In this document: positions 37,561 through 48,280 of the stretch, in pieces | Layout: every line of letters begins with the position of its first letter | Numbering within the stretch: the stretch's first letter is position 1 | Assembly (NCBI GenBank): GCA_963663955.1 | Contig: OY760694.1 | Location: 2,118,327 to 2,182,326 of the forward strand | DNA from: Acidimicrobiia bacterium | GTDB taxonomy: Bacteria; Actinomycetota; Acidimicrobiia; Spongiisociales; Spongiisociaceae | Direction of reading: 5' to 3' | DNA length: 64,000 bases | The notes under the pieces: generated by a model | What the model saw: the letters and a program-made list of their open reading frames with translations, nothing else | Databases searched by the model: none | What the model was told of the DNA's origin: nothing | Position numbers and translations under genes: made by a program

Positions 37561-37718
37561 TCGGGAGTTACCGATTCTCGAAACCAGGGACCCTGTGGCG
37601 ATGTCATGTATTCGCTAACGATGCGACACCATCAACAGTTACCACAACTTGGGGGTTGGAATGGGATGCCTCATTGCTTACACTCACGATTGGAAACAAG
37701 CTCGGCTAGGTACGCGCA

Positions 37719-39005
37719 ATGATCTCTGACTACCGCGGGTATACCTCTCGGCTTCGCGAACTGCTAGTTTCGATAGTGGATAGCGGTCTGCGAGATCACC
37801 ATACCGATCTGCTACGTGTACTAGACGGACAGGCGGCGGCGGAACTTCGCGACCTCGTCGAACTACCGGTGCGGCGCGCTCGCGGGGCATTCTTCACTAC
37901 CGGCAAATTGCGCGCCATGGTCCTGTCATCCTTCGATCACAGTGGCACCGGTGTCTACTTCGATCCGGCATGCGGCGCCGGTGATCTACTGGTAGAGGCG
38001 GCAATGAGAATGCCTGTATTCGACAGCTACTTATCTACTGTCGAATACTGGGGTGAACGCCTGATGGGGTGTGATGTTGAACCGGTGTTCGTGGAGACCG
38101 CCAAGCTTCGTCTGCTCCTAGCCGCGGCCTACCGATCCGGACAGCCGCCCCCGCAGGAGATACCGGAGGATGTGTTCCCTTGGGTGGTTGTGGGTGATGG
38201 CCTCGCTCAGGAACGCCTCGCCAAACGGAGCAGCCATATTGTGCTGAACCCCCCGTTCGGCTACATGAAGGCCCCGGACAACATCCCATGGGCCGGGGGT
38301 CGGATTTCGGAAGCCGCGTTCTTTCTGGCGCGGGTAATCGAGTACTCCCCGCCAGGAGTGTCGATTGCAGCCGTCCTCCCCGATGTTCTTCGATCCGGTA
38401 GCCGGTACGGGAAGTGGCGGTCGATGGTCGAGTCAATGGTCGAAGTCACGAAGATCGAGATTCACGGAGTTTTTGACGAATCTACCGACATCGACGTGTT
38501 CGTCCTGCACGGGACAAAGTCTGATCCCGCGACGGGCGCCGTCCCGTGGGTACCCGAACACGAGGACACGTCTGTCGGTAACTATTTCGACGTTCATGTC
38601 GGGGCAGTCGTCCCCCACCGCGATCCGGAAACTGGTCCTAGGCACCCGTACATCTGGCCAAGGCGACTCCCGCTCGCTGGATCGTTCGATCCACGGGGGG
38701 AATGGAGGCGATTCTCCGGCACGACGTTCGATCCTCCGTTCGTAGCCATCCGCCGGACTTCCCGACCAGGAGAGAAGCGGAGAGCAGGCGGCGTCCTCGT
38801 GGTCGGTGACTGGCCCGTAGCGGTCGAGAACCATCTTCTGGTTGCCATACCCAAAGACGGCAGCGCGTCGTCATGCCTTGCTCTGATCGACACACTGGCT
38901 GACAAGCGTACCCGGGACTGGATAGATAGTCAGATAAGGACCCGGCACCTGACGGTATCTGTGACCCGGGGCATCCCGTGGTTGGGTGATAACGCTGATG
39001 GCTGA
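37719..39005 (+). CDS. gamma-class N6-adenine DNA methyltransferase (first gene of a 4-gene overlapping operon)
   Basis: 428 aa; FFTTGKL (motif X), FDPACGAGDLL (motif I), IVLNPPFG (motif IV, NPPF). 3' end overlaps the next gene by 20 nt. Confidence 0.75.
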   Translation: MISDYRGYTSRLRELLVSIVDSGLRDHHTDLLRVLDGQAAAELRDLVELPVRRARGAFFTTGKLRAMVLSSFDHSGTGVYFDPACGAGDLLVEAAMRMPVFDSYLSTVEYWGERLMGCDVEPVFVETAKLRLLLAAAYRSGQPPPQEIPEDVFPWVVVGDGLAQERLAKRSSHIVLNPPFGYMKAPDNIPWAGGRISEAAFFLARVIEYSPPGVSIAAVLPDVLRSGSRYGKWRSMVESMVEVTKIEIHGVFDESTDIDVFVLHGTKSDPATGAVPWVPEHEDTSVGNYFDVHVGAVVPHRDPETGPRHPYIWPRRLPLAGSFDPRGEWRRFSGTTFDPPFVAIRRTSRPGEKRRAGGVLVVGDWPVAVENHLLVAIPKDGSASSCLALIDTLADKRTRDWIDSQIRTRHLTVSVTRGIPWLGDNADG

Positions 39006-41049
39006 AAGACTGAAGTTCGCGCCGTCGATCCTCGCCAGGCTCGGCGAAGAACTAGTTCCCCACCCCGACCAAGGCATACTCGAACTGGCCAAGAACGCCT
39101 ACGACGCCGACGCCCGCTGGTGTCGGGTGACTCTCAATGACGTTACTCGATGGGGTGGGACTGTGGCGGTAACCGACGACGGGGACGGTATGACGCTGCA
39201 ACAAATCCGGGAAGGCTGGCTGATCCTGGGGCGCTCCGAGAAAGACCCCTCACGGAGAACAAGGCTAGGTCGGTTGCCGGTGGGCCAGAAAGGCCTCGGC
39301 CGGCTCGCCGCCCTGAGGCTGGGCCGTCGGGTTGTCCTGGCGACGCGACCGGTGTCCGAACCCGGGGTTGAATACTGGATGGAGATCGATTGGGAGCGGT
39401 TCGACAAGGCCGATGCGGTAGAGGATGTTGCACTGATAATCCACCACCGACTCACATCAAAGCCTTCCGGGACATCGATCACGATCAGCCATCTCTCAAC
39501 AGCGCTGGGGCGGATGGACACCAAGCGACTCGCTCGCTCGCTGATTCTCCTAGCCGATCCGTTCAAGTCTACGCGTGGTTTTAGGGCGGAGTTGATCACG
39601 GACGACTTCCGAGATCTCGAGAATCTGGTGAGAAGCGGATACTTCGCCGAAGCTCACTACCGACTAAGCGCAACGTTGGATTCTGATGGCTCAGCGACGG
39701 CAGAGGTGACGGATCACCAGGGGAATCTCAAGTGGAAAGCCGGCCACAACGATCTAAGGGAATCGGGCCCCTATCGCGCCCCACCCGCGACTCTTGAACT
39801 CTGGGAGTTCAGGCTCACGGGAGAATCCTTCTCTCATAGCAAAGCGACTCTGGGGGAAGTCAAGAACTGGCTCAGAGAGGTAGGAGGGGTTCATTTCTAC
39901 TACCGCGGGCTACGGGTGAGACCCTACGGGGACCGTGGTCACGACTGGCTTGAGATGAACTTGCGTCGTGTCCGGAGTCCCGAACAGCGCCCCTCGACCA
40001 ACAACTCCATCGGGCTGGTTATCGTTGACGACGACCCCGACAATCTACTCGGTGAGAAGACAGATCGGTCCGGTTTCATCGAGAACCGCGCCTTCTCCGA
40101 GATCCGAGACTTCGCCGGCGACGCTTTGGACTGGATGGCCCACCGCCGCGTTGGAGAACGCGATCGGAAGCGTCGTAAGCAGCGCCACACCGGGCAGGAG
40201 CGAGTAGCCGGGGCGCGGAAGGATATGGAAAAAGCTGTAGCTCAGATCCCGGAAGATCAGCGTAAGGATGTGCAGGCAGCCATGCAGCAGTTGGAGAAGG
40301 CACGCGAAAACGAGCGTGAGTCTATCTTGAGCGACCTTCAGCTGTATCGAACATTGAGCACCGTAGGCACAACCGCGTCGGTCTTCGCCCACGAGGCCGC
40401 AGGACCACTCAACCGGATCGAACGCCTAGCGAATACGATCGAACACCGGTGCCGAAACACCCTTGCCGCTGACTACCAACCTACGATCGGCGGGCCGGTC
40501 CGTCTGCTGCATAGGGCAGCCCGGGCGCTACGGAGCTTCGTCAGGCTTCCGCTGACTCTCTTGCAACGGGAGAAGCGCCGGATCCGCACGATCAACCTTC
40601 ATCAGGCAATCGACGAAGTGCTGGAACTCTTCGACCCCTTCCTCGCCGATTCGGATGTAACCGTCAAGACCGAATACGTTGACGCTTCCTTTAGGGTCCA
40701 GGGCCGGACCGCATCGCTGGAGGCGATCCTCGCAAACCTCATCACCAACTCAATTAGCGCTTTCCAGCGCTCCGACACTCTGGAAAGCCGTGAGATCCTG
40801 ATCCGGACCGTCCAATCCGGAGACCGTATGCTCCTATCCGTTCGGGATAACGGACCAGGAATCCGCGGCATCGCCAGGAACGACATCTGGAACCCCGGGC
40901 AAACGACAACACCCGGCGGCACCGGAATCGGCCTGACGATCGTCCGCGATGAAGCAGCGGATATCGGTGGACGCGCCTACCTCGCGCCGGACACCGAAGA
41001 AGGTGGAGCTGAGTTCATAGTCGAACTCCCGTTGCTGGGATTGAACTGA
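38986..41049 (+). CDS. hybrid protein: N-terminal GHKL (Bergerat-fold) ATPase domain + coiled coil + C-terminal histidine kinase core (HisKA H-box + HATPase_c)
   Basis: N-terminus: LELAKNAYDADA (N-box), VTDDGDGMT (G1), GQKGLGRLAA (G2). C-terminus: SVFAHEAAGPLNRIE (H-box), ILANLITNSISAF (N-box), VRDNGPGI (G1), GGTGIGLTIVRD (G2). Stop overlaps the next start (TGATG). Confidence 0.7.
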   Translation: MITLMAERLKFAPSILARLGEELVPHPDQGILELAKNAYDADARWCRVTLNDVTRWGGTVAVTDDGDGMTLQQIREGWLILGRSEKDPSRRTRLGRLPVGQKGLGRLAALRLGRRVVLATRPVSEPGVEYWMEIDWERFDKADAVEDVALIIHHRLTSKPSGTSITISHLSTALGRMDTKRLARSLILLADPFKSTRGFRAELITDDFRDLENLVRSGYFAEAHYRLSATLDSDGSATAEVTDHQGNLKWKAGHNDLRESGPYRAPPATLELWEFRLTGESFSHSKATLGEVKNWLREVGGVHFYYRGLRVRPYGDRGHDWLEMNLRRVRSPEQRPSTNNSIGLVIVDDDPDNLLGEKTDRSGFIENRAFSEIRDFAGDALDWMAHRRVGERDRKRRKQRHTGQERVAGARKDMEKAVAQIPEDQRKDVQAAMQQLEKARENERESILSDLQLYRTLSTVGTTASVFAHEAAGPLNRIERLANTIEHRCRNTLAADYQPTIGGPVRLLHRAARALRSFVRLPLTLLQREKRRIRTINLHQAIDEVLELFDPFLADSDVTVKTEYVDASFRVQGRTASLEAILANLITNSISAFQRSDTLESREILIRTVQSGDRMLLSVRDNGPGIRGIARNDIWNPGQTTTPGGTGIGLTIVRDEAADIGGRAYLAPDTEEGGAEFIVELPLLGLN

Positions 41050-41741
41050 TGCAGGTTGCCATCGTCGACGACGTGGCCGACGAGTTGGAGGTACTTGAGT
41101 ATGAACTCGAAGACGCAGGCCACAAAGCTATACGCCGGGAGAGCCCGATCGCATCCCTCGACAACCTGGACTCGTGGCTGAGGGCCCAGCAGGTCGAGGG
41201 GTTTGTCTGTGACCAACGCCTATCGGTCGCCAACTACGCGCCCTTCCAAGGAGCCGAAGCCGTCCGACGTGTGTTCCGCCATCTCCGACTGCCATCGCTC
41301 CTTGTCAGTTCGTTCATTGCCACCGAGGTGTTGGCCATCAGGTATTTCCGCGCTTCCGTTCCCGTTCTGATAGAGAAACAGGCCTTGGGCCGAGACACGA
41401 TCAATCGGGGGTTCGCGCTCAGCAAGTCCGAACTGGGGGGCAACGTACCTACCCAGCGAATTCCGAGACGAACCGGAGTTCACATCACGAAGGTGGACGT
41501 GCGCGGTCGTGGGATCGTCGAAACGATAGTGCCCGGCTGGAATGAAAACCTGGAGGTCAGCTTCCCGCTGGACCTGATTGAAGACCATACCCTGAGAACA
41601 GATGTGCGTAGCCGCCGTATGGACTGGCTCATAGCACGAGTCAATCTCGACGCAGAGCACCAAGCTGACTTGTTCTTCATGGACTTCGAGCGGGCCCCCG
41701 ATCCGGGAGATGTTTGGGAGCGACTATGGCGCCCGAGTTGA
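41049..41741 (+). CDS. response-regulator receiver (REC) domain protein with ~110-aa C-terminal domain of unknown function
   Basis: N-terminal VAIVDDVADELE (acidic pocket), candidate phospho-acceptor in …GFVCDQRL…, conserved S in LLVSS, K in LIEKQ. No recognisable HTH or known output domain. Confidence 0.55.
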   Translation: MQVAIVDDVADELEVLEYELEDAGHKAIRRESPIASLDNLDSWLRAQQVEGFVCDQRLSVANYAPFQGAEAVRRVFRHLRLPSLLVSSFIATEVLAIRYFRASVPVLIEKQALGRDTINRGFALSKSELGGNVPTQRIPRRTGVHITKVDVRGRGIVETIVPGWNENLEVSFPLDLIEDHTLRTDVRSRRMDWLIARVNLDAEHQADLFFMDFERAPDPGDVWERLWRPS

Positions 41742-42493
41742 TCCTGCTGGATGTAGGCCACGGTAACTGTGCTCTGCTGACTGGACAGGATACAGCCGTG
41801 GTGATCGACGTTCCCCGTGGAGGTGTTCACGCCGATGCGCTCAAAGCAAGGTCGATAAGGGATGTACACGCCGTCATAATCTCCCATGCCGACGCCGATC
41901 ACATGGGCGGAGCCACCAGCCTTCTATACGACAAGGACATACGGGTACACAAGGTCTACGTCAACCCGGACGCCACGAAGACCGCAGGTGGTGGCGGATT
42001 GGTGTGGAAGAACTTCCTTATAGCCCTGCGAGACGCAGAGAGACGCGGCGAGTTGAAGGTATCCGGCATACACCGCGGTCAGCACATCGAAGTACCCGAT
42101 CACCGGATTCGTTTGGAGGTGCTGGCCCCGACCACCGAGCTTTGGCTCCTCGGTGTAGGAGGAAGCGCAGGGAAGCGAACGCTTACTTCTAATTCTGTCA
42201 GCGTGGTAGTCCGTGTCCGGTTCGACGACAAGCCGATGGCCCTGTTGCCCGGTGACCTTGACACCCTGGGACTCGAACAGTTGCTCGCAGAAGAACACGA
42301 ACTACATGCTCAAGTGATGGTGTTCCCGCATCATGGTGGGAACACCGGAGGAGACAACAGGGAGTTCGCCGCCCTGATTACCAATGCTGTCAAACCGGAA
42401 ACTGTCGTGTTCTCGTTCGGACGACACCAAACCAGCAACCCCGACCGGAGATTATCGAAGGCATCGGGTCAGCCCGACCAGACATGCGAATAA
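41714..42493 (+). CDS. metallo-beta-lactamase-fold hydrolase (ComEC/Rec2-type MBL domain; possible nuclease)
   Basis: 259 aa; ILLDVGHGNCALL…, HxHxDH motif IISHADADHMGG, downstream His in …VFPHHGG…. 5' end overlaps the REC gene by 28 nt. Confidence 0.65.
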   Translation: MGATMAPELILLDVGHGNCALLTGQDTAVVIDVPRGGVHADALKARSIRDVHAVIISHADADHMGGATSLLYDKDIRVHKVYVNPDATKTAGGGGLVWKNFLIALRDAERRGELKVSGIHRGQHIEVPDHRIRLEVLAPTTELWLLGVGGSAGKRTLTSNSVSVVVRVRFDDKPMALLPGDLDTLGLEQLLAEEHELHAQVMVFPHHGGNTGGDNREFAALITNAVKPETVVFSFGRHQTSNPDRRLSKASGQPDQTCE

Positions 42494-42981
42494 TGTGTAC
42501 GCAGCTCTCGAAACGATGCTCCGAATCGACCTTCGATCCGCAACACGTAGCACCTCTCCCAGCCAAAGGAAAAGACCTGGGGAACTGCTGTGCCGGCAGC
42601 CTACAGTTCGACCCGGACGGCTTGGTGGCTCCCAGTGCAGAAGAGCATGCAGAGTTCGTCGACAACTTCACGACATCGCCACTCTGCCGGCTCGAGATGC
42701 CCTGAGCCAGGCAACCTGGATATCAAGGAGAAAGAGGCTTCGCAGAAACGTTGAGAGGGGCGGTTCTGGAGATCCCTGGTTAGGGCCGGAGACCCGGAAG
42801 ACGGCTTCGATGCTCGGGCCATGGGTAAAGCATCTTCGCCGGGTGAAAACCGGACCGATCTCGAGGCAAGCGTCAGGAATGCCGGTCTATGTCACTTCGA
42901 CCAAGGCGGAGGGAACAGGCCCGTCAGGTTTCACAGCGTTAAGGAGATTACACTCGATCGCACACCACTGTCCGGCGGCAT

Positions 42982-44859
42982 TCACTCCCACTTGTCAGAG
43001 TTAGGCCCCGGCCAGATGCGTGATACGACCTTGGCTAGCTGCTCTCCGCGCGTTCGTATCGCTTGCTCGTTCCAATCGGTTTCCTGACACAGCCGCGCGT
43101 TTAGACGCAAGTGTGAGTGCTTCATAAGTTCGCGCCGTTTGTCGTTCCAGGGTGCGTTGCTCAGTGCCGGATTCAATCGGCTGCTAACCAGTGTGAGGTT
43201 CCCGATGCGGTGCAAGTGGTCGGACCGCTCCTTCTCCAGAACGATCTTTTTACCCTGATCCGAAGTCTCGACCGGCCAATGTGCTTGCCAGCTCTTTGGG
43301 AGCACATGCTCGATTTGCAGCGAGTCATAGTCAATGGACTTAAGCGGTTCTCCCTTGTGGTAGTCGTCGTGCTGGAATCGGTCGTCGACCGCGCCCAAGA
43401 GTAGTCGGAGTCGATACTGGGCGATTCCTCCGTATCCGTAGTAGGCGGAGCTTCGGAACTGCTCGACCAATTGCGCGTCCGTTGGCCATGGGTATCCATG
43501 TGGCCCTTGGCGAAGTGCCTCCACGATAGCTAACCCCGGATGGGCTCCCGCTCCTTTAGCGGCTCGGAGCACGTCGGCGAAGGCTTGGCCGTAGGCGCGT
43601 GTCTGAGCCTTAATCGCCATACGCCGAATGACGAAGGACTCTATGGCTTGGAACGCCAACTCCCTCTCCCCTGGTAGCAGCACCTCTTCGGATCGAGTCA
43701 GAAGCCACAGGAGCACGGGAGTGGCCACCGTTACGTTGAGACGATCAATTCGTTGAAACGACAGACGCTCGTTGACTGTTGCGCCTTCCATTCGCCCGTG
43801 GAGCCGCTCGTACGCATCCGCGTAGCGGTCCAGTTCGCGCAGAGCGTCGACAGCGGTTGTGCCACTGGAATGCAACCAACTTCGGAACTCACCGTACAGG
43901 CGACCGACGTTGATGACGCGACCACGCTGAGCGATCAGCCAGTCTCCCATCAGCCAGTCCTGTCTTGCCCTGCGAGCGTGACCAGCCCCGACAGGCTTTC
44001 GCCACCAATCATCGGCATTGTCAAACCGAGCCCAGACCTCATCGTATAGTTTCTGGGGATCGTGGCCTTTGGTTTGAGCGCGCATGAAAAGTAGGTTCTT
44101 TACCAGGTCCGTCGCTGATAGCGGCGTGTTGCGGGCGTTCAGCGCCTCGAAGATAACTTGCGCGTCGTCGACATCCTCCAGATCGATTACTACAAGCTTG
44201 ACGAGCACCAGCAACGTGGCCACGAGAAGCGACGCGCGACGCTGTACCGCGTCCCCGTCCGCATATGGATCCTCGTGGACTCTCTCGTCCTCCAGAAAGC
44301 CGCTCACTTGACTGAAGAAAAAGTGGCGCGCTTCAGCGAAGACCGAATCATCTGGAGGTGGCGGTTCTGCCCCCACTGCACTCCGATAACGTTCGGACTC
44401 CGCTTGCCGAGGCCAGACTTTGTGCACATCGTCGCCCGACCAGATCTCTTGGTCATTGATAGTCAGCTTGCGTAGTTGTGCCAGTTGAAGCTTGGTGATG
44501 GCTGCGGTCCGCAGAGCATCAAGCGTCCCCATCAGAAGAAGTTGCAGCGTAACGAGGCGTTGCTGACCGTCCACTACCAGCCTAGTCTTGATATCCAATG
44601 GGCCTGTGGGGTACGGCTCCACGACGATGGCACCCAAAAAGTGCGGTGCTGCCCTTGCATCTGCAGTAGACGCAGGCTTTCCGGCACTATGCGACTCCTG
44701 TCGCGTCTCTGCCAAGCGCAGGGCGGTTGACTCCACGTCTTCCCAGAGGGGTTCCCACTGCAGCTCGCGCTTCCAGACATAGGGGCGCTGGTACGTGGGT
44801 ATGACGAAACGCCGGTCGCCCTGAAGCACCTCTTGCAGCGTGTTCGTGTCAGCTTTCAT
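42982..44859 (-). CDS. GmrSD-family type IV (modification-dependent) restriction endonuclease-like protein (DUF262 + DUF1524)
   Basis: 625 aa; N-terminal ParB-like DUF262 motifs FVIPTYQRPYVW and DGQQRL; C-terminal HNH-like DUF1524 region …LQIEHVLPKS…HRIGNLTLV…. Confidence 0.75.
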   Translation of the reverse strand: MKADTNTLQEVLQGDRRFVIPTYQRPYVWKRELQWEPLWEDVESTALRLAETRQESHSAGKPASTADARAAPHFLGAIVVEPYPTGPLDIKTRLVVDGQQRLVTLQLLLMGTLDALRTAAITKLQLAQLRKLTINDQEIWSGDDVHKVWPRQAESERYRSAVGAEPPPPDDSVFAEARHFFFSQVSGFLEDERVHEDPYADGDAVQRRASLLVATLLVLVKLVVIDLEDVDDAQVIFEALNARNTPLSATDLVKNLLFMRAQTKGHDPQKLYDEVWARFDNADDWWRKPVGAGHARRARQDWLMGDWLIAQRGRVINVGRLYGEFRSWLHSSGTTAVDALRELDRYADAYERLHGRMEGATVNERLSFQRIDRLNVTVATPVLLWLLTRSEEVLLPGERELAFQAIESFVIRRMAIKAQTRAYGQAFADVLRAAKGAGAHPGLAIVEALRQGPHGYPWPTDAQLVEQFRSSAYYGYGGIAQYRLRLLLGAVDDRFQHDDYHKGEPLKSIDYDSLQIEHVLPKSWQAHWPVETSDQGKKIVLEKERSDHLHRIGNLTLVSSRLNPALSNAPWNDKRRELMKHSHLRLNARLCQETDWNEQAIRTRGEQLAKVVSRIWPGPNSDKWE

Positions 44860-45112
44860 TCATAGAGCCGGTGGCAACGAGACAGCATGTGGTCGGGGTC
44901 ACGGGAGGATCCGTTTCTTGGGAGCGGACAAGGCCGAGTTTAACAAAACGAACAGCAGACGTGTGGATACCCGCTAGGTGATGATTCGGGTTCTAGGAGC
45001 GCCAATGCCACGGCGGAACAAGCCCACAGCATCGTGACATACGGACTGCTATGCCAAGGTAGAAGCTCTTGGCAACCGGTAGACTGAATATGTATGAAAG
45101 ACGAGGCGAACA

Positions 45113-45532
45113 ATGACGGACTGGGGAACCTGTCCCGCTGTTGAGAGTGTGCCCGGAAGGCTTGGAGGAACCTGGGTGTTCACCGGAACGAGAGTGCCCG
45201 TATCAAGCCTGTTCGGAAACCTTGCGGAAGGCGCCACCGTCAGTAACTTTTTGGAGTGGTTCCCTGGCGTGGAGGAATGGCAGGTTCGATCCGTGCTGGA
45301 GCATGAGGTGACGTCTCTTGATGCGAAGGTGAGGTATGAGGTACCTGTTTTGACCACGGAAACCGCCCGGAAATCATCACACTTGTCGACCTGCACAACT
45401 TGTCCAACCCCACCAAGAAACCAATCCGCGCACCCTCTAAGACTTAGGAGTTACGGTTGGTCCGAATCATCGTCCTCGAGTGCGCTGCTTATAGAAGGCC
45501 CAACTGCCAAACGGCACCGCCCTCAAGTGTAG
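45113..45532 (+). CDS. DUF433 domain protein (TA-antitoxin-like small domain) with an uncertain low-complexity C-terminal extension
   Basis: N-terminal ~75 aa …PGRLGGTWVFTGTRVPVSSLFGNLAEGATVSNFLEWFPGVEEWQVRSVLEH matches the DUF433 pattern (…G.P.I.GTR.PV..I…G.S.EEI…P.L…). Confidence 0.45.
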   Translation: MTDWGTCPAVESVPGRLGGTWVFTGTRVPVSSLFGNLAEGATVSNFLEWFPGVEEWQVRSVLEHEVTSLDAKVRYEVPVLTTETARKSSHLSTCTTCPTPPRNQSAHPLRLRSYGWSESSSSSALLIEGPTAKRHRPQV

Positions 45533-45540
45533 GTTCCGGA

Positions 45541-46077
45541 TCAACATGGGCTGTTGTTCTTTCGGAGACCGGACGTAGACCCAGATTTAGGATACTTCTG
45601 GTCGCGGCGTCGAATCGCCCCTTCTACCCACTGGGCTAGTACATACCCTTTCGATGGATACGGATGATACGAAGCATAGCCGACTTCCGAGTTGTTGACG
45701 TATCGTCTGTTCCGACCCAACCTCCCTGGTAGTTTTATGTTATTCCTTCCGTTCACAGATGGGAGTTGGACAGCAAGTAATCCCCCGCGCGGGTCCGTAG
45801 GATTGTTTCGTAGTGTCGCCGCGATTTCCCAATCCACATATTTTCGAGCCCATGTACATTTTCCGATCAAGGCAATTGTCACCGACGTTCCGGAAATGTA
45901 CTTTTCTCGAATCCTTCTCAGAATATATTCCGCATTGTTACTGTTTATAAAGTCATCATCACCGGAAATACCAATTACACGTATCTGATTGAAAGATTTA
46001 CGGAAACAGGATACAAACCCGTCTACTTCTCTTTGGTCGGCGTGGTGGTAGGTTAGAAAAACGTTTCGCTTGACCAT
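45541..46077 (-). CDS. ThsB-like TIR-domain protein (TIR-like DUF1863 type); markedly low-GC gene
   Basis: …RNVFLTYHHADQREVDGFV…VTIALIGKCTWARKYVDWEIAATL… matches the ThsB/TIR-like pattern (F.SYhh.D…V..VLIG..T..R.WV.YEI). GC by eye ~48% against ~65% surroundings. Confidence 0.65.
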   Translation of the reverse strand: MVKRNVFLTYHHADQREVDGFVSCFRKSFNQIRVIGISGDDDFINSNNAEYILRRIREKYISGTSVTIALIGKCTWARKYVDWEIAATLRNNPTDPRGGLLAVQLPSVNGRNNIKLPGRLGRNRRYVNNSEVGYASYHPYPSKGYVLAQWVEGAIRRRDQKYPKSGSTSGLRKNNSPC

Positions 46078-46208
46078 TGTGGCCCCTTTCGGCCGTTGCA
46101 CTGCATATCGATATGCCTACTGATCAAGTTCAAGACAGTACCACCTTGTGCGAGACAATCCCATAGTTACAACCGAGCGTAACTTCCAGAAGGAGGTAAG
46201 GTGAATTC

Positions 46209-47444
46209 GTGCTTCCTCCAATCCTTGAGATCTACGTAGTCTGGCATCCGGACGACCGCGAGGGTCAGCGGATTAGCCGATGGCTGCTAGAACACTTCCA
46301 TGGGACGCCTTACCAGGGCCTGATCGGCGGGGCGGTGGAGGTGTACTCCCGTTCAGCCCCTTGGGGGCCGGGCTCGGACGCCCCAAGACCTCTGCCATTT
46401 CAAAGACCCCTACCCTATCAACTGGCCCAGGCGCGTGTGACGGCCATCGTGCCGGTTCTGGGTGCGGGCCTTGCACGAGCGGTCGAGGAGGAATCGTCGG
46501 GCTGGCGCGGATACCTAGCGAGCATGAGCACAGTCGTCAACGCGTCGGATGAACGGATCGGAGTATTCCCCGTGCGCCTGTGTGGAACGGTGGATGGGGA
46601 TCTAGATCAGTTGATGGGAAGACTTCAAGCCTTGGATCCTAAGAGTACAGAAGACCGCGCGGTCCTGTGTCGAGAATTGTCACAGGCAGTTGCCCAGCTG
46701 ATAGGCGACCCATTCGGCAATCGACTAACGGTATTCATCAGCCACACCAAGCGGCACTCCCTCGCAGAAGAACCGGACGACGTCGATAACCTAATAGCCC
46801 GGATCCGGGATACAATCGCGAACACCCGCCTTCGAGCCTACTTCGACACTGCTGATCTGCAACTCGGGTCAGACTGGGACCAAGAACTTCGCTCGAACGC
46901 CGCGTCAAGTGCGCTCCTCGCCGTTCGTACCGATCTGTACGCCAGCAGGGAGTGGTGCCAGCGAGAGTTCCTAATCGCGAAGCGATCTGGAATGCCGATC
47001 GTCACCCTCAGCGCGATTCGTCGCGCCGAGGAACGCGGCTCCTTCATTATGGATCATGTCCCGAGCGTTGGCTACCGGCAACCTGAAGCGGAGGCGGCCA
47101 CCTCTGTCATCAAGGTAGCGTTGAATATGCTCGTCGATGGTGCACTCAGTCGGGCTCTATGGTTAGTTCAGGAGGATATGATGCAAGGTATGGGGATTGA
47201 CTGGGCACCACCGCAGGCACCTGAGCCGGTAACCCTTCTACCTTGGCTCCTTGACAATCGTTACCGGTTCGCAAAAGATGGCCCTATAGTGATTATGCAT
47301 CCCGATCCACCTCTTGGACCGGAGGAATCGAGCGTGATTGCCGAGCTTCTCGCGTTGGCAGGGGTCGCCGATGTAATTGACATCGTTACTCCGCGTACCT
47401 TGGCGAGCCGCGTCACTCAGGACATCTTGTGGCCACCGAACTGA
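46209..47444 (+). CDS. protein with two TIR-like domains in tandem (degenerate N-terminal + clearer C-terminal TIR)
   Basis: C-terminal half …TVFISHTKRHS…YFDTADLQLGSDWDQEL…ALLAVRTDLYASREWCQREFLIA… TIR-like; N-terminal half begins LEIYVVWHPDD…. 3' end overlaps the next gene by 16 nt. Confidence 0.55.
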   Translation: MLPPILEIYVVWHPDDREGQRISRWLLEHFHGTPYQGLIGGAVEVYSRSAPWGPGSDAPRPLPFQRPLPYQLAQARVTAIVPVLGAGLARAVEEESSGWRGYLASMSTVVNASDERIGVFPVRLCGTVDGDLDQLMGRLQALDPKSTEDRAVLCRELSQAVAQLIGDPFGNRLTVFISHTKRHSLAEEPDDVDNLIARIRDTIANTRLRAYFDTADLQLGSDWDQELRSNAASSALLAVRTDLYASREWCQREFLIAKRSGMPIVTLSAIRRAEERGSFIMDHVPSVGYRQPEAEAATSVIKVALNMLVDGALSRALWLVQEDMMQGMGIDWAPPQAPEPVTLLPWLLDNRYRFAKDGPIVIMHPDPPLGPEESSVIAELLALAGVADVIDIVTPRTLASRVTQDILWPPN

Positions 47445-48280
47445 TCCCGCGGAACGCACTTCAAGGATTCCGCGTCGGCCTCTCAGTGTCCGACAGCGAT
47501 GACCTCGAACGGCTTGGACTATCACAAGCACATGCGGAGCTAGCCGTAGGTGAACTGGCCAGAGCTGTGCTAGTCGCAGGAGGCAGTCTGGTTTATGGAG
47601 GACGAATTAAGCCCTCGGGCTTCACGCAAATCCTAATGCACGAGGTTCATCGCTATGGCGATGGACAGAACATAATAACTCTTTGCCTTGCTGCACCTGA
47701 ACACCGCAAGCTCTCCCGACGTGAACTAGATGACTTAGGCCAAGAGCTGGGTACAGAAGGTCGCTTAGTTTGCCTAGATGAGACAGGACGTGAAATACAC
47801 GGGATACTGAGTTCGAAAGCTAAGGATCCTGATCCCATTCCCGAAGATGAAGCAAGGCGATCCTACAGTTCGTTACGACGCTACATGAGGACCATTACAG
47901 ATGCTCGAGTTCTCATTGGTGGCAAGCTATCAGGCTTTAAGGGATCAATACCGGGAATTATCGAAGAAGCGATCGTCACAATCGAGAAACGGCAGCCTCT
48001 CTATGTGTCAGCAGGTTTCGGAGGAGCTGCTGCATTGGTTGCACAGCAACTCGACATTGATGACTTGAGTTGGGCACCCCCGGATTTTCCAACATATCCC
48101 ACCGAGGATAAGCGGATTGAACAGGCGCTCGAAAGCCTTGACACGGTAGCCTTATCCTCCATGTGGAGCGCCAGTTCTCTAGGACTCGACAGGCGAGCCC
48201 TCCACCGACTCGCAGCTTCACATCGGGCGAGCGAGATCGCATCACTAGTAGTTGTGGGCCTATCTCGATTGACACGATAA
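47429..48280 (+). CDS. SLOG/LOG-family (Rossmann-like, 'Lonely guy'-fold) protein, TIR-associated
   Basis: 283 aa; …VLVAGGSLVYGGRIKPSGFTQILMHEV… (LOG GGxGxMG-like) and …GFKGSIPGIIEEAIVT… (PGGxGTxEE-like). Co-operonic with the tandem-TIR gene. Confidence 0.5.
   Translation: MATELIPRNALQGFRVGLSVSDSDDLERLGLSQAHAELAVGELARAVLVAGGSLVYGGRIKPSGFTQILMHEVHRYGDGQNIITLCLAAPEHRKLSRRELDDLGQELGTEGRLVCLDETGREIHGILSSKAKDPDPIPEDEARRSYSSLRRYMRTITDARVLIGGKLSGFKGSIPGIIEEAIVTIEKRQPLYVSAGFGGAAALVAQQLDIDDLSWAPPDFPTYPTEDKRIEQALESLDTVALSSMWSASSLGLDRRALHRLAASHRASEIASLVVVGLSRLTR

Follow-up and report, generated by a model that had tools for sequence, protein, structure and literature searches.

The stretch of DNA analysed here, called the window in the following, comprises 64,000 nucleotides (nt) from an Acidimicrobiia bacterium (contig OY760694.1 of assembly GCA_963663955.1, positions 2,118,327 to 2,182,326 of the forward strand), and the locus in question is a cassette of four genes, g1 to g4, that begins at position 37719 of the window. 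The longest open reading frames (ORFs), all on the plus strand, lie at 37719-39005 (428 amino acids, aa), 38986-41049 (687 aa), 41049-41741 (230 aa) and 41714-42493 (259 aa). They are co-directional and overlap by 20 nt, 1 nt (TGATG) and 28 nt, as an earlier sequence-only reading of this DNA had noted. Gene callers picked ATG starts at 38998 for g2 and 41726 for g4 on near-identical contigs, and with these starts the overlaps become 8 nt (ATGGCTGA), 1 nt (TGATG) and 16 nt. Under either choice of start the four genes are tightly coupled, and the start/stop overlaps fit translational coupling. The motifs quoted in the sequence-only reading for g1, g2 and g4 were all found in the translations, and no hydrophobic segment resembling a transmembrane helix was found in any of the four proteins. 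The system to which the cassette will mostly be compared is Ambrosia, which protects Pseudomonas aeruginosa from phages and was described in a preprint of 2025 as consisting of AbrR (HipB-like XRE), AbrA (N6-methyltransferase), AbrB (HATPase/histidine kinase), AbrC (receiver, with a reported winged helix-turn-helix) and AbrD (type IV HNH) (10.1101/2025.09.30.679545).

The first gene (g1, 37719..39005, plus strand) encodes an AbrA-like N6-adenine DNA methyltransferase of 428 aa, as judged from its motifs, its homology to AbrA and profile comparison with the PDB, where it matches HsdM and M.BseCI. Motif I (DPACGAGD, residues 82-89) precedes motif IV (NPPF, residues 177-180, nt 38247-38258), and the enzyme is of the gamma class. 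Its conserved C-terminal domain carries VVPHRD, PPFVAxRRTS and VENH. The PADLOC matches are partial, to mad2 (5e-12) and MTase_II, and the NCBIfam model of the mad2 methylase gives 21.6 bits for a cut-off of 720.

The second gene (g2, 38998..41049, plus strand; 683 aa, or 687 aa from an alternative GTG start at 38986) encodes a soluble fusion of a GHKL ATPase with a histidine kinase, an assignment based on Pfam, PDB profiles and homology to AbrB. The N-terminal GHKL domain (residues ~26-160) contains ELAKN33AYDAD and DDGDGM, with the Mg-binding Asn33 encoded at nt 39094-39096. It is followed by a middle domain of ~200 residues (~190-385) with invariant YGD..DWL, RPST and, at 354, KTDRxGF, by a charged helical linker (residues 386-450), and by a kinase core with the H-box FAH465E (His465, nt 40390-40392), an N box at 580, DNGPGI at 617 and GTGIGL at 641. 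Pfam recognises both HATPase_c_3 (2e-16) and HATPase_c (1e-19), and in PDB profiles residues 438-680 resemble a ZraS-like histidine kinase (4e-25) and residues 27-128 resemble MORC3/MutL. The two GHKL domains claimed for this protein in the sequence-only reading are accordingly present, as a HATPase_c_3 head and a complete DHp/catalytic kinase core. None of the catalytic motifs FAH465E, N580/N584, D617xGxG and G641TGxGL varies among 22 homologues, and the middle domain with its invariant K354-T-D-R is a candidate S5-type transducer. A conventional membrane sensor kinase, which the same reading had considered as a possibility unfavourable to its own proposal, is not what is encoded here; the protein is without a transmembrane segment and its input is a MORC-like GHKL domain. 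An unannotated contig of 5.4 kb from human faeces, recorded as "Bacteriophage sp." (MT838277.1), encodes a protein with 29% identity to g2 over the first 367 residues of the latter; it may represent a GHKL module carried by a phage or a fragment that was misclassified.

Residues 31-193 of the GHKL head also match NF050001, the model of the BbrUII/HgiDII restriction family (1e-16, 60.7 bits), and g2 matches PADLOC REase_II. This bears on the idea of an ATP-dependent, type II-like restriction-modification (R-M) system in which g2 would be a GHKL subunit of the HgiDII/BbrUII type that recruits the hydrolase encoded by g4, its kinase and the receiver being vestigial or structural, and paraMORC GHKL ATPases are components of R-M operons (Iyer, Abhiman & Aravind 2008, PMC2292703). 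We regard this as quite improbable, since the match spans ~170 residues at 61 bits versus a cut-off of 550, and since His465, the N, G1 and G2 boxes and the receiver residues D7, D8 and D55 of g3 are invariant and the corresponding D60A mutation in AbrC kills Ambrosia defence (10.1101/2025.09.30.679545). Membership of g2 in the BbrUII/HgiDII family of enzymes was rejected on the same score.

The third gene (g3, 41049..41741, plus strand) encodes a protein of 230 aa with a receiver (REC) domain and, in the predicted structure, a C-terminal OB-fold barrel. A Pfam scan gave no match, and a sequence search of the PDB returned marginal receiver matches alone and nothing for the C-terminal domain. 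The assignment derives from an AlphaFold2 model based on 49 diverse homologues (pLDDT 95.8) and from Foldseek, which aligns residues 1-130 as a receiver fold to PhoP, VicR, CheY and Spo0F (TM ~0.75). The acidic pair D7/D8 and the phospho-acceptor D55 (nt 41211-41213) are invariant, with Ser/Thr at 87. The CheY-like receiver of the sequence-only reading thus stands, and the C-terminal domain, which that reading had left unassigned, is modelled as an OB-fold output domain with no helix-turn-helix (HTH). The family is large, with 413 clusters at 50% identity (E<=1e-30).

The fourth gene (g4) encodes a hydrolase of the ComEC-type metallo-beta-lactamase (MBL) fold with a Cys-rich C-terminal domain, 326 aa at 41726..42705 on the plus strand once a frameshift is repaired, as derived from tblastn, other assemblies and profiles. 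Its motifs are HADADH (HxDxDH type; residues 54-59, nt 41885-41902), D177 and PHHG at 201-204 (PHHGG at 201), and Pfam identifies it as Lactamase_B (1.3e-10). The closest solved domains are the MBL domains of ComEC (~1e-18), in line with the ComEC-type assignment proposed earlier from the HADADH motif, while CbpE (4e-9) and Apyc1 (3e-4) are much weaker matches. The MBL domain of ComEC is a DNA nuclease. The ComEC/Rec2 model TIGR00361 gives 40.2 bits for a cut-off of 190 and matches the MBL domain alone, and neither the competence membrane domain of ComEC nor any hydrophobic segment was found in g4. The four conserved Cys and one His of the C-terminal domain suggest a zinc site.

In the window the frame of g4 breaks at a homopolymer run of four cytosines (C4, 42435..42438, plus strand), and the N-terminal ORF stops at 42493, which the sequence-only reading had taken as the end of the gene. 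By tblastn the last third of the g4 homologues, which are 326-360 aa long, is found in another frame of the window, and the conserved Cys-rich C-terminus is what the frameshift cuts off. Two independent short-read assemblies, L006 (ERR3887488; 99.4%, 8741 nt) and L094 (ERR3887490; 99.94%, 3600 nt), carry five cytosines at this place, one base more than the window. Because both also carry an intact g4 of 326 aa, the true gene is taken to run over 41726-42705, and an assembly error is likelier than decay of g4. What broke the frame is most probably an error in the consensus of the source contig at this homopolymer, with a strain-specific mutation as a less probable alternative; true pseudogenisation was rejected on the evidence of the two intact assemblies. 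The C4 run also creates a spurious ORF of 206 aa (42384-43004, plus strand), and other genes of the source contig may contain homopolymer errors of the same type. On the long contigs L009, L058 and L072 the cassette genes are split into multiple frames, and they are intact in L010, a short-read contig of the L009 lineage, which is consistent with long-read homopolymer errors, not decay.

The spread of the cassette was assessed in a set of genomes with one representative of each GTDB species, in which at least 575 loci with relatives of g2 were found. Eighty of these were scored with hidden Markov models (HMMs) of g1 to g4, and loci with a g2 score of at least 500 (~40-50% identity) and complete flanks were treated as close (n=43). 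The genes g3 and g4 follow g2 in that order in 42 of the 43 close loci, and the earlier claim of a conserved functional unit made up of all four genes is upheld. An AbrA-like methylase is adjacent in 28 of the 43. In 19 of these it lies upstream in the same orientation, in 6 it is divergent and in 3 it lies downstream. It was undetected in the other 15 loci, among which Marinomonas has a C5 methylase and Thermohalobaculum an N6 methylase of the Eco57I type. Since 15 loci do without the AbrA-like enzyme and two of those checked carry another methylase, the methylase is, on this comparison of loci, a frequent and exchangeable accessory to an invariant core g2-g3-g4. The lack of an adjacent AbrA-like methylase in one third of the loci argues against a strict R-M logic.

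The g2-g3-g4 unit was found in Cyanobacteria, Actinomycetota, Acidobacteriota, Chloroflexota, Planctomycetota, Bacteroidota, Verrucomicrobiota, Latescibacterota, Myxococcota and Pseudomonadota, so that what we call the MBL clade spans, by the sequences recovered, at least ten phyla. Full-length homologues of g2 (~685 aa) number in the hundreds in metagenomes and genomes, with 48-85% identity, and neighbourhoods in Acidobacteriota, Myxococcota and Chloroflexota hold all four genes in unchanged order between unrelated flanks. Complete cassettes of the MBL clade occur on plasmids of Hymenobacter, Pseudanabaena and Burkholderia (L091 NZ_CP095070.1, L092 NZ_CP028965.1, NZ_AP017563.1); the plasmid of Burkholderia sp. 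IDO3 is a conjugative MOBH/MPF_T megaplasmid, on which the cassette has as neighbours a DEAD/DEAH helicase and a toxin-antitoxin pair of the ParDE type. Each of the four protein families keeps its catalytic residues without exception, and the invariance of His465, of the N, G1 and G2 boxes and of D7, D8 and D55 across phyla indicates that they are under selection. PADLOC, NCBIfam and PGAP label the genes generically, as "sensor histidine kinase / hypothetical / MBL fold". Full-length homologues of the GHKL-kinase were also seen in Nitrosopumilaceae (L069, L083), which are ammonia-oxidising archaea, in Paceibacterota (L065) and in TM6 (L073), the last two being candidate phyla with reduced genomes, and these archaeal and candidate-phyla homologues point to a very wide horizontal spread of the superfamily.

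The type of effector tracks the kinase clade, because close kinases are always and distant ones never found together with a REC-OB protein and an MBL hydrolase: all g2 homologues of at least 40% identity have these partners, and none of ~30 homologues at 24-29% has them. The partners of a first set of distant homologues are a short REC protein, an HNH protein and an N6 methylase. Because these loci match AbrB at 33-38% (vs ~27% for the MBL clade) and also match AbrC and AbrD, they are the true relatives of Ambrosia and form a separate kinase clade, and AbrD matches loci of this HNH clade only. A second set (L068, L071, L074, L075, L077, L078, L082, L085, L086, L088-L090) has a C5 methylase (Dcm), Vsr and receivers fused to domains of 350-460 aa without a Pfam match, which carry a conserved motif, SPACDL, TPDCDL or SPQCDF in the three representatives read. 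The Dcm/Vsr loci probably correspond to the Response_reg_2 pairs described in 2021 (Bellieny-Rabelo et al. 2021, PMC8011034), and the domains fused to their receivers may be nucleases. Three further loci (L059, L062, L080) have a HerA/DUF87-type ATPase before the GHKL-kinase and a receiver fusion of ~390-400 aa after it, unlike both Ambrosia and the MBL clade.

The proteins of the window were compared with the Ambrosia sequences of Table S1 of the preprint. By BLASTP, and with AbrA and AbrB taken over residues 1-399 only, the pair g1/AbrA shows 35% identity across 348 aa (E 6e-66) and the pair g2/AbrB 27% across 386 aa of the GHKL and middle domains (E 1e-35), values for which the 100-bit and 500-bit HMM cut-offs of the authors are not the yardstick. 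AbrB shares with g2 the architecture of two GHKL domains, HATPase_c_3 and HATPase_c, and g3 matches the receiver part of AbrC only (E 2e-4), with D55 aligned to D60. The gene order, methyltransferase, GHKL/histidine kinase, receiver and nuclease, is also the same. Point mutants in every gene of Ambrosia lose defence, among them AbrB N40A, AbrC D60A and mutants of the methyltransferase and the HNH protein (10.1101/2025.09.30.679545), and N40 of AbrB is the Mg-binding Asn of the GHKL head that corresponds to N33 of g2. Taken together, these sequence relationships make the clade of the window's cassette a sister to Ambrosia, both belonging to a large superfamily in which effectors are swapped.

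We read the cassette as an anti-mobile-element defence of the Ambrosia superfamily, R-M-like in its make-up, in which a nuclease would be gated by a cytoplasmic His-Asp phosphorelay, and we put the probability of this reading at roughly 0.55. That the genes serve defence is well backed by their conservation, by the genes around them and by homology. The g2 protein would act as a soluble dimeric sensor, with a MORC/MutL-like GHKL head that binds ATP and makes contact with DNA or with a cue of infection. The charged helical linker would relay the signal to the DHp domain, leading to autophosphorylation of His465, for which the motifs are in place. From there the phosphoryl group could pass to Asp55 of g3, the equivalent of D60 in AbrC, whose mutation abolishes Ambrosia defence. 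The OB-fold of phosphorylated g3 may then bind single-stranded nucleic acid or the nuclease itself, and so license g4 to degrade invading DNA. The m6A (N6-methyladenine) methylation of host DNA by g1 would separate self from non-self, or tune the sensing.

A number of points weigh against this reading. Among the substrates of MBL hydrolases are also RNA, cyclic nucleotides and phosphodiesters, and the matches of g4 to Apyc1 and CbpE, although weak, go in that direction. The support for defence by the MBL clade is computational, and g4 is frameshifted in the assembly of the window. In g3 the position of the canonical receiver Lys in beta5 is mostly Arg or Lys and not invariant. An AbrA-like methylase is not adjacent in one third of the loci, and the comparison with AbrA and AbrB is confined to their first 399 residues. 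The source on Ambrosia is a preprint only, its authors favour transcriptional induction, and methylation by AbrA did not protect phage (10.1101/2025.09.30.679545). This last result, together with the loci that have no methylase, calls for caution in assuming a classical R-M logic.

The alternative closest to the view of those authors is a transcriptional switch, in which the kinase senses infection and the phosphorylated receiver turns on a silent methylase and nuclease. Cold-shock-type OB folds can regulate transcription or translation through nucleic acids, and the DNA upstream of g1 may have a part in such control. A non-coding leader of ~110 nt (37610..37718, plus strand) is conserved in a relative with 84% identity (L007), being nearly identical to positions 2250-2357 of that locus, and the remaining spacer between rex and g1 differs by an indel of ~220 nt. 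It is a probable promoter or regulatory/operator region of the cassette. Neither an inverted repeat nor a match to a sigma-70 consensus or promoter was found in it. The gap of 158 nt before g1 holds no ORF, the gene upstream of it is the housekeeping rex, and a gene for an AbrR/XRE-type regulator is absent; likewise no conserved XRE or C-protein gene was found upstream of g1 in the relatives, sporadic HTH_17 and HTH_3 genes only. Expression of Ambrosia rises on infection, reporters at the AbrA and AbrD positions were barely expressed before it, and a winged HTH is reported for AbrC (10.1101/2025.09.30.679545). The modelled C-terminus of g3, however, is an OB barrel with no HTH, the MBL clade conserves no XRE or C-protein gene upstream, and the kinase and receiver lie inside the operon that they would have to induce, tightly coupled to g4. 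The receivers of the sister clades, moreover, are fused to large domains that are not HTHs. We therefore find a transcriptional switch rather unlikely. Because g3 is without an HTH, no XRE regulator is conserved and the sister-clade receivers have large non-HTH fusions, we infer that gating of the nuclease is more plausibly post-translational than transcriptional as in the Ambrosia model.

Another alternative is that the activated MBL protein is a toxin directed at host nucleic acids or at a nucleotide pool or signal, with death or arrest of the cell as the outcome and the methylase incidental or regulatory. Such abortive infection would be compatible with the third of the loci that are without an AbrA-like methylase, with the weak similarity of g4 to Apyc1, a cyclic-nucleotide phosphodiesterase, and with the MBL effectors or accessories of Lamassu, DRT, PDC-M48 and 6A-MBL, to which weak PADLOC and NCBIfam matches of g4 exist. 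We consider it decidedly unlikely, as the nearest solved relative of g4 is the DNase domain of ComEC (1e-18 vs 3e-4 for Apyc1), the AbrA-like methylase is present in two thirds of the loci, and Ambrosia defends without toxicity to its host (10.1101/2025.09.30.679545).

It is tempting to carry the proposed defence by a phosphorelay-gated nuclease one step further. A MORC-like, ATP-driven DNA clamp might read the state of the DNA (e.g. unmethylated or foreign), phosphorylate the REC-OB adaptor and in this way directly switch on the ComEC-like nuclease, with no transcriptional role, and the same arrangement might be the founding logic of an effector-swapping superfamily, with MBL, HNH, REC-fused domains and HerA partners, that extends from Nitrosopumilus archaea and CPR (candidate phyla radiation) bacteria to Streptomyces. 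We put this forward tentatively, as a possible extension.

In the genome of the window the cassette lies between uvrB-rex and a cytochrome bc gene cluster, and in a sponge-metagenome relative (84% identical) it occupies the same site, with a different right side (ISL3 transposase). To the right in the window, the defence-island setting described in the sequence-only reading was recovered. The gene for a GmrSD-type type IV restriction enzyme (minus strand, within 42982-46101; PADLOC Orf5/mREase_IV, 5.9e-85) is followed by two others, at 45113-45532 for a DUF433 protein and at 45541-46101, on the minus strand, for a ThsB-like TIR protein; the latter is solitary, with ThsA absent from its vicinity. 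Beyond these lie genes for a TIR_2 protein (411 aa) and a SLOG-cluster-2/LD_cluster2 protein (283 aa), which overlap by 16 nt (46209-48280). This pair has no PADLOC match, lies in the lowest-GC part of the island (GC at third codon positions, GC3, of 0.46 for the SLOG gene), and may from its sequence be a separate two-gene defence candidate. The lower GC that the same reading had ascribed to the cassette itself did not hold up, with 0.596 for the operon and 0.601 for the whole window; its GC3 alone is slightly lower (0.64-0.69 vs 0.71-0.755 for uvrB, rex and the cytochrome gene), and the true GC dip of the window is at 45-49 kb. The neighbours in the relatives include ThsB-TIR genes, an SMC/AAA_15 ATPase, toxin-antitoxin pairs, an integrase fragment and transposases, and such neighbourhoods are those expected of a defence cassette that is mobile and sits in a variable hotspot.

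The position beside uvrB and rex, together with the ComEC-like MBL domain of g4, could also be taken to mean that the genes serve housekeeping or niche signalling, for example DNA uptake, processing or repair through a ComEC-like hydrolase, and the cyanobacterial loci checked are directly flanked by housekeeping genes, some of them without a methylase. We find this hardly probable at all in view of the patchy phyletic spread with ~45-50% identity across phyla, the plasmid copies, and insertion contexts that differ between loci. The membrane and competence domains of ComEC are missing (40 bits vs 190), and the linkage to DNA methylases and the homology to a validated anti-phage system argue for the defence reading.

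How the cassette relates to known systems was examined by PADLOC, NCBIfam and Pfam scans of g1 to g4, which gave generic or partial matches only (mad2, MTase_II, REase_II, LmuA, RTasMBL, PDC-M48B, 6A-MBL). The earlier statement that the genes do not match Detocs, BREX, DISARM or R-M systems is confirmed in that PADLOC and NCBIfam give no system-level match, and the same applies to MADS. Detocs, BREX and DISARM were rejected as none of them has matches for g1 to g4. MADS resembles the cassette as a methylation-associated multi-gene defence and through the partial mad2 match of g1, but was rejected because MAD6-8 are mandatory and absent here; no other mad model matches g2 to g4. Detocs (DtcA histidine kinase, DtcB Hpt buffer, DtcC REC-nucleoside phosphorylase) likewise has a defence effector that is turned on by a His-Asp phosphorelay after infection. 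It differs in that g2 and g3 have no PADLOC match at E<=10, in that the cassette has no Hpt buffer and its effector is a separate MBL hydrolase, not a nucleoside phosphorylase fused to REC, and in that a methylase and a MORC-like head are found in the cassette alone.

With canonical two-component systems the cassette shares the H-box His and the N, G1 and G2 boxes of g2 (ZraS profile, 4e-25), and it differs from them in the MORC-like GHKL input without a transmembrane segment and in an output that is predicted to be an OB-fold rather than a DNA-binding domain. The Bergerat-fold ATPase at the N-terminus of g2, of the HATPase_c_3/MORC3/MutL type, is reminiscent of the MORC and paraMORC proteins that are encoded with methylases and nucleases, from which g2 differs by the fusion of its GHKL head to a complete kinase core, the pairing with a receiver and the lack of an SF2 helicase (PMC2292703).

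A closer parallel is offered by the HEF_HK/Response_reg_2 pairs. In that purely bioinformatic study, soluble HATPase_c_3-DHp-HATPase_c proteins are linked to divergent receivers in 91.6% of cases and are enriched near R-M genes (C5 methylases, Vsr, HNH), and a tie to the paraMORC ATPases of R-M operons is proposed (PMC8011034). The g2 protein, with a soluble HATPase_c_3, DHp and HATPase_c, adjoins a divergent receiver in the same manner (42/43 loci), and DNA methylases and nucleases are associated with both. The pairs of that study are mainly from Proteobacteria and Bacteroidetes, near C5 methylases, Vsr and HNH_2, with receivers that have no other assigned domain, and its results do not report an MBL partner or an OB-fold (PMC8011034). 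The models PF19191 (HEF_HK) and PF19192 (Response_reg_2) gave no match to g2, g3 or the sister-clade proteins at E<=10, with a library copy that was not confirmed to hold both.

The claim of the sequence-only reading that this is a previously undescribed system holds in part: the kind of system was already known, from Ambrosia and the HEF_HK pairs, and it is the combination of an MBL effector, a REC-OB protein and a pan-phylum distribution that was not found described. In the literature we did not find a ComEC-like MBL in place of HNH, REC-OB in place of REC-winged HTH and a spread beyond Gammaproteobacteria together, and the sole trace of the architecture in the DefensePredictor and BREX-diversity papers is a mention, in a figure legend, of an unvalidated HATPase + REC prediction. 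From Ambrosia itself the cassette differs in several respects. AbrD is a type IV HNH protein, whereas its place is taken here by g4, an MBL hydrolase of the ComEC type whose tail is rich in Cys, and the cassette has no HNH gene. The output domain of g3 is a predicted OB-fold, whereas a winged HTH is reported for AbrC. An XRE regulator is neither present here nor conserved in the MBL clade, whose methylase is moreover dispensable or exchangeable, and the clade occurs in more than ten phyla, whereas Ambrosia is reported in Gammaproteobacteria only (10.1101/2025.09.30.679545). A system presented as Gammaproteobacterial and controlled by transcription thus shares its chassis of methylase and MORC-kinase with cassettes that span more than ten phyla and plasmids. 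The different nuclease and OB output of the MBL clade make a mechanism in which phosphorylation licenses the nuclease testable, its compact and soluble cassette is suited to asking how a GHKL DNA-clamp module drives a histidine kinase, and beside Ambrosia it stands as a new clade for defence-annotation tools to model.

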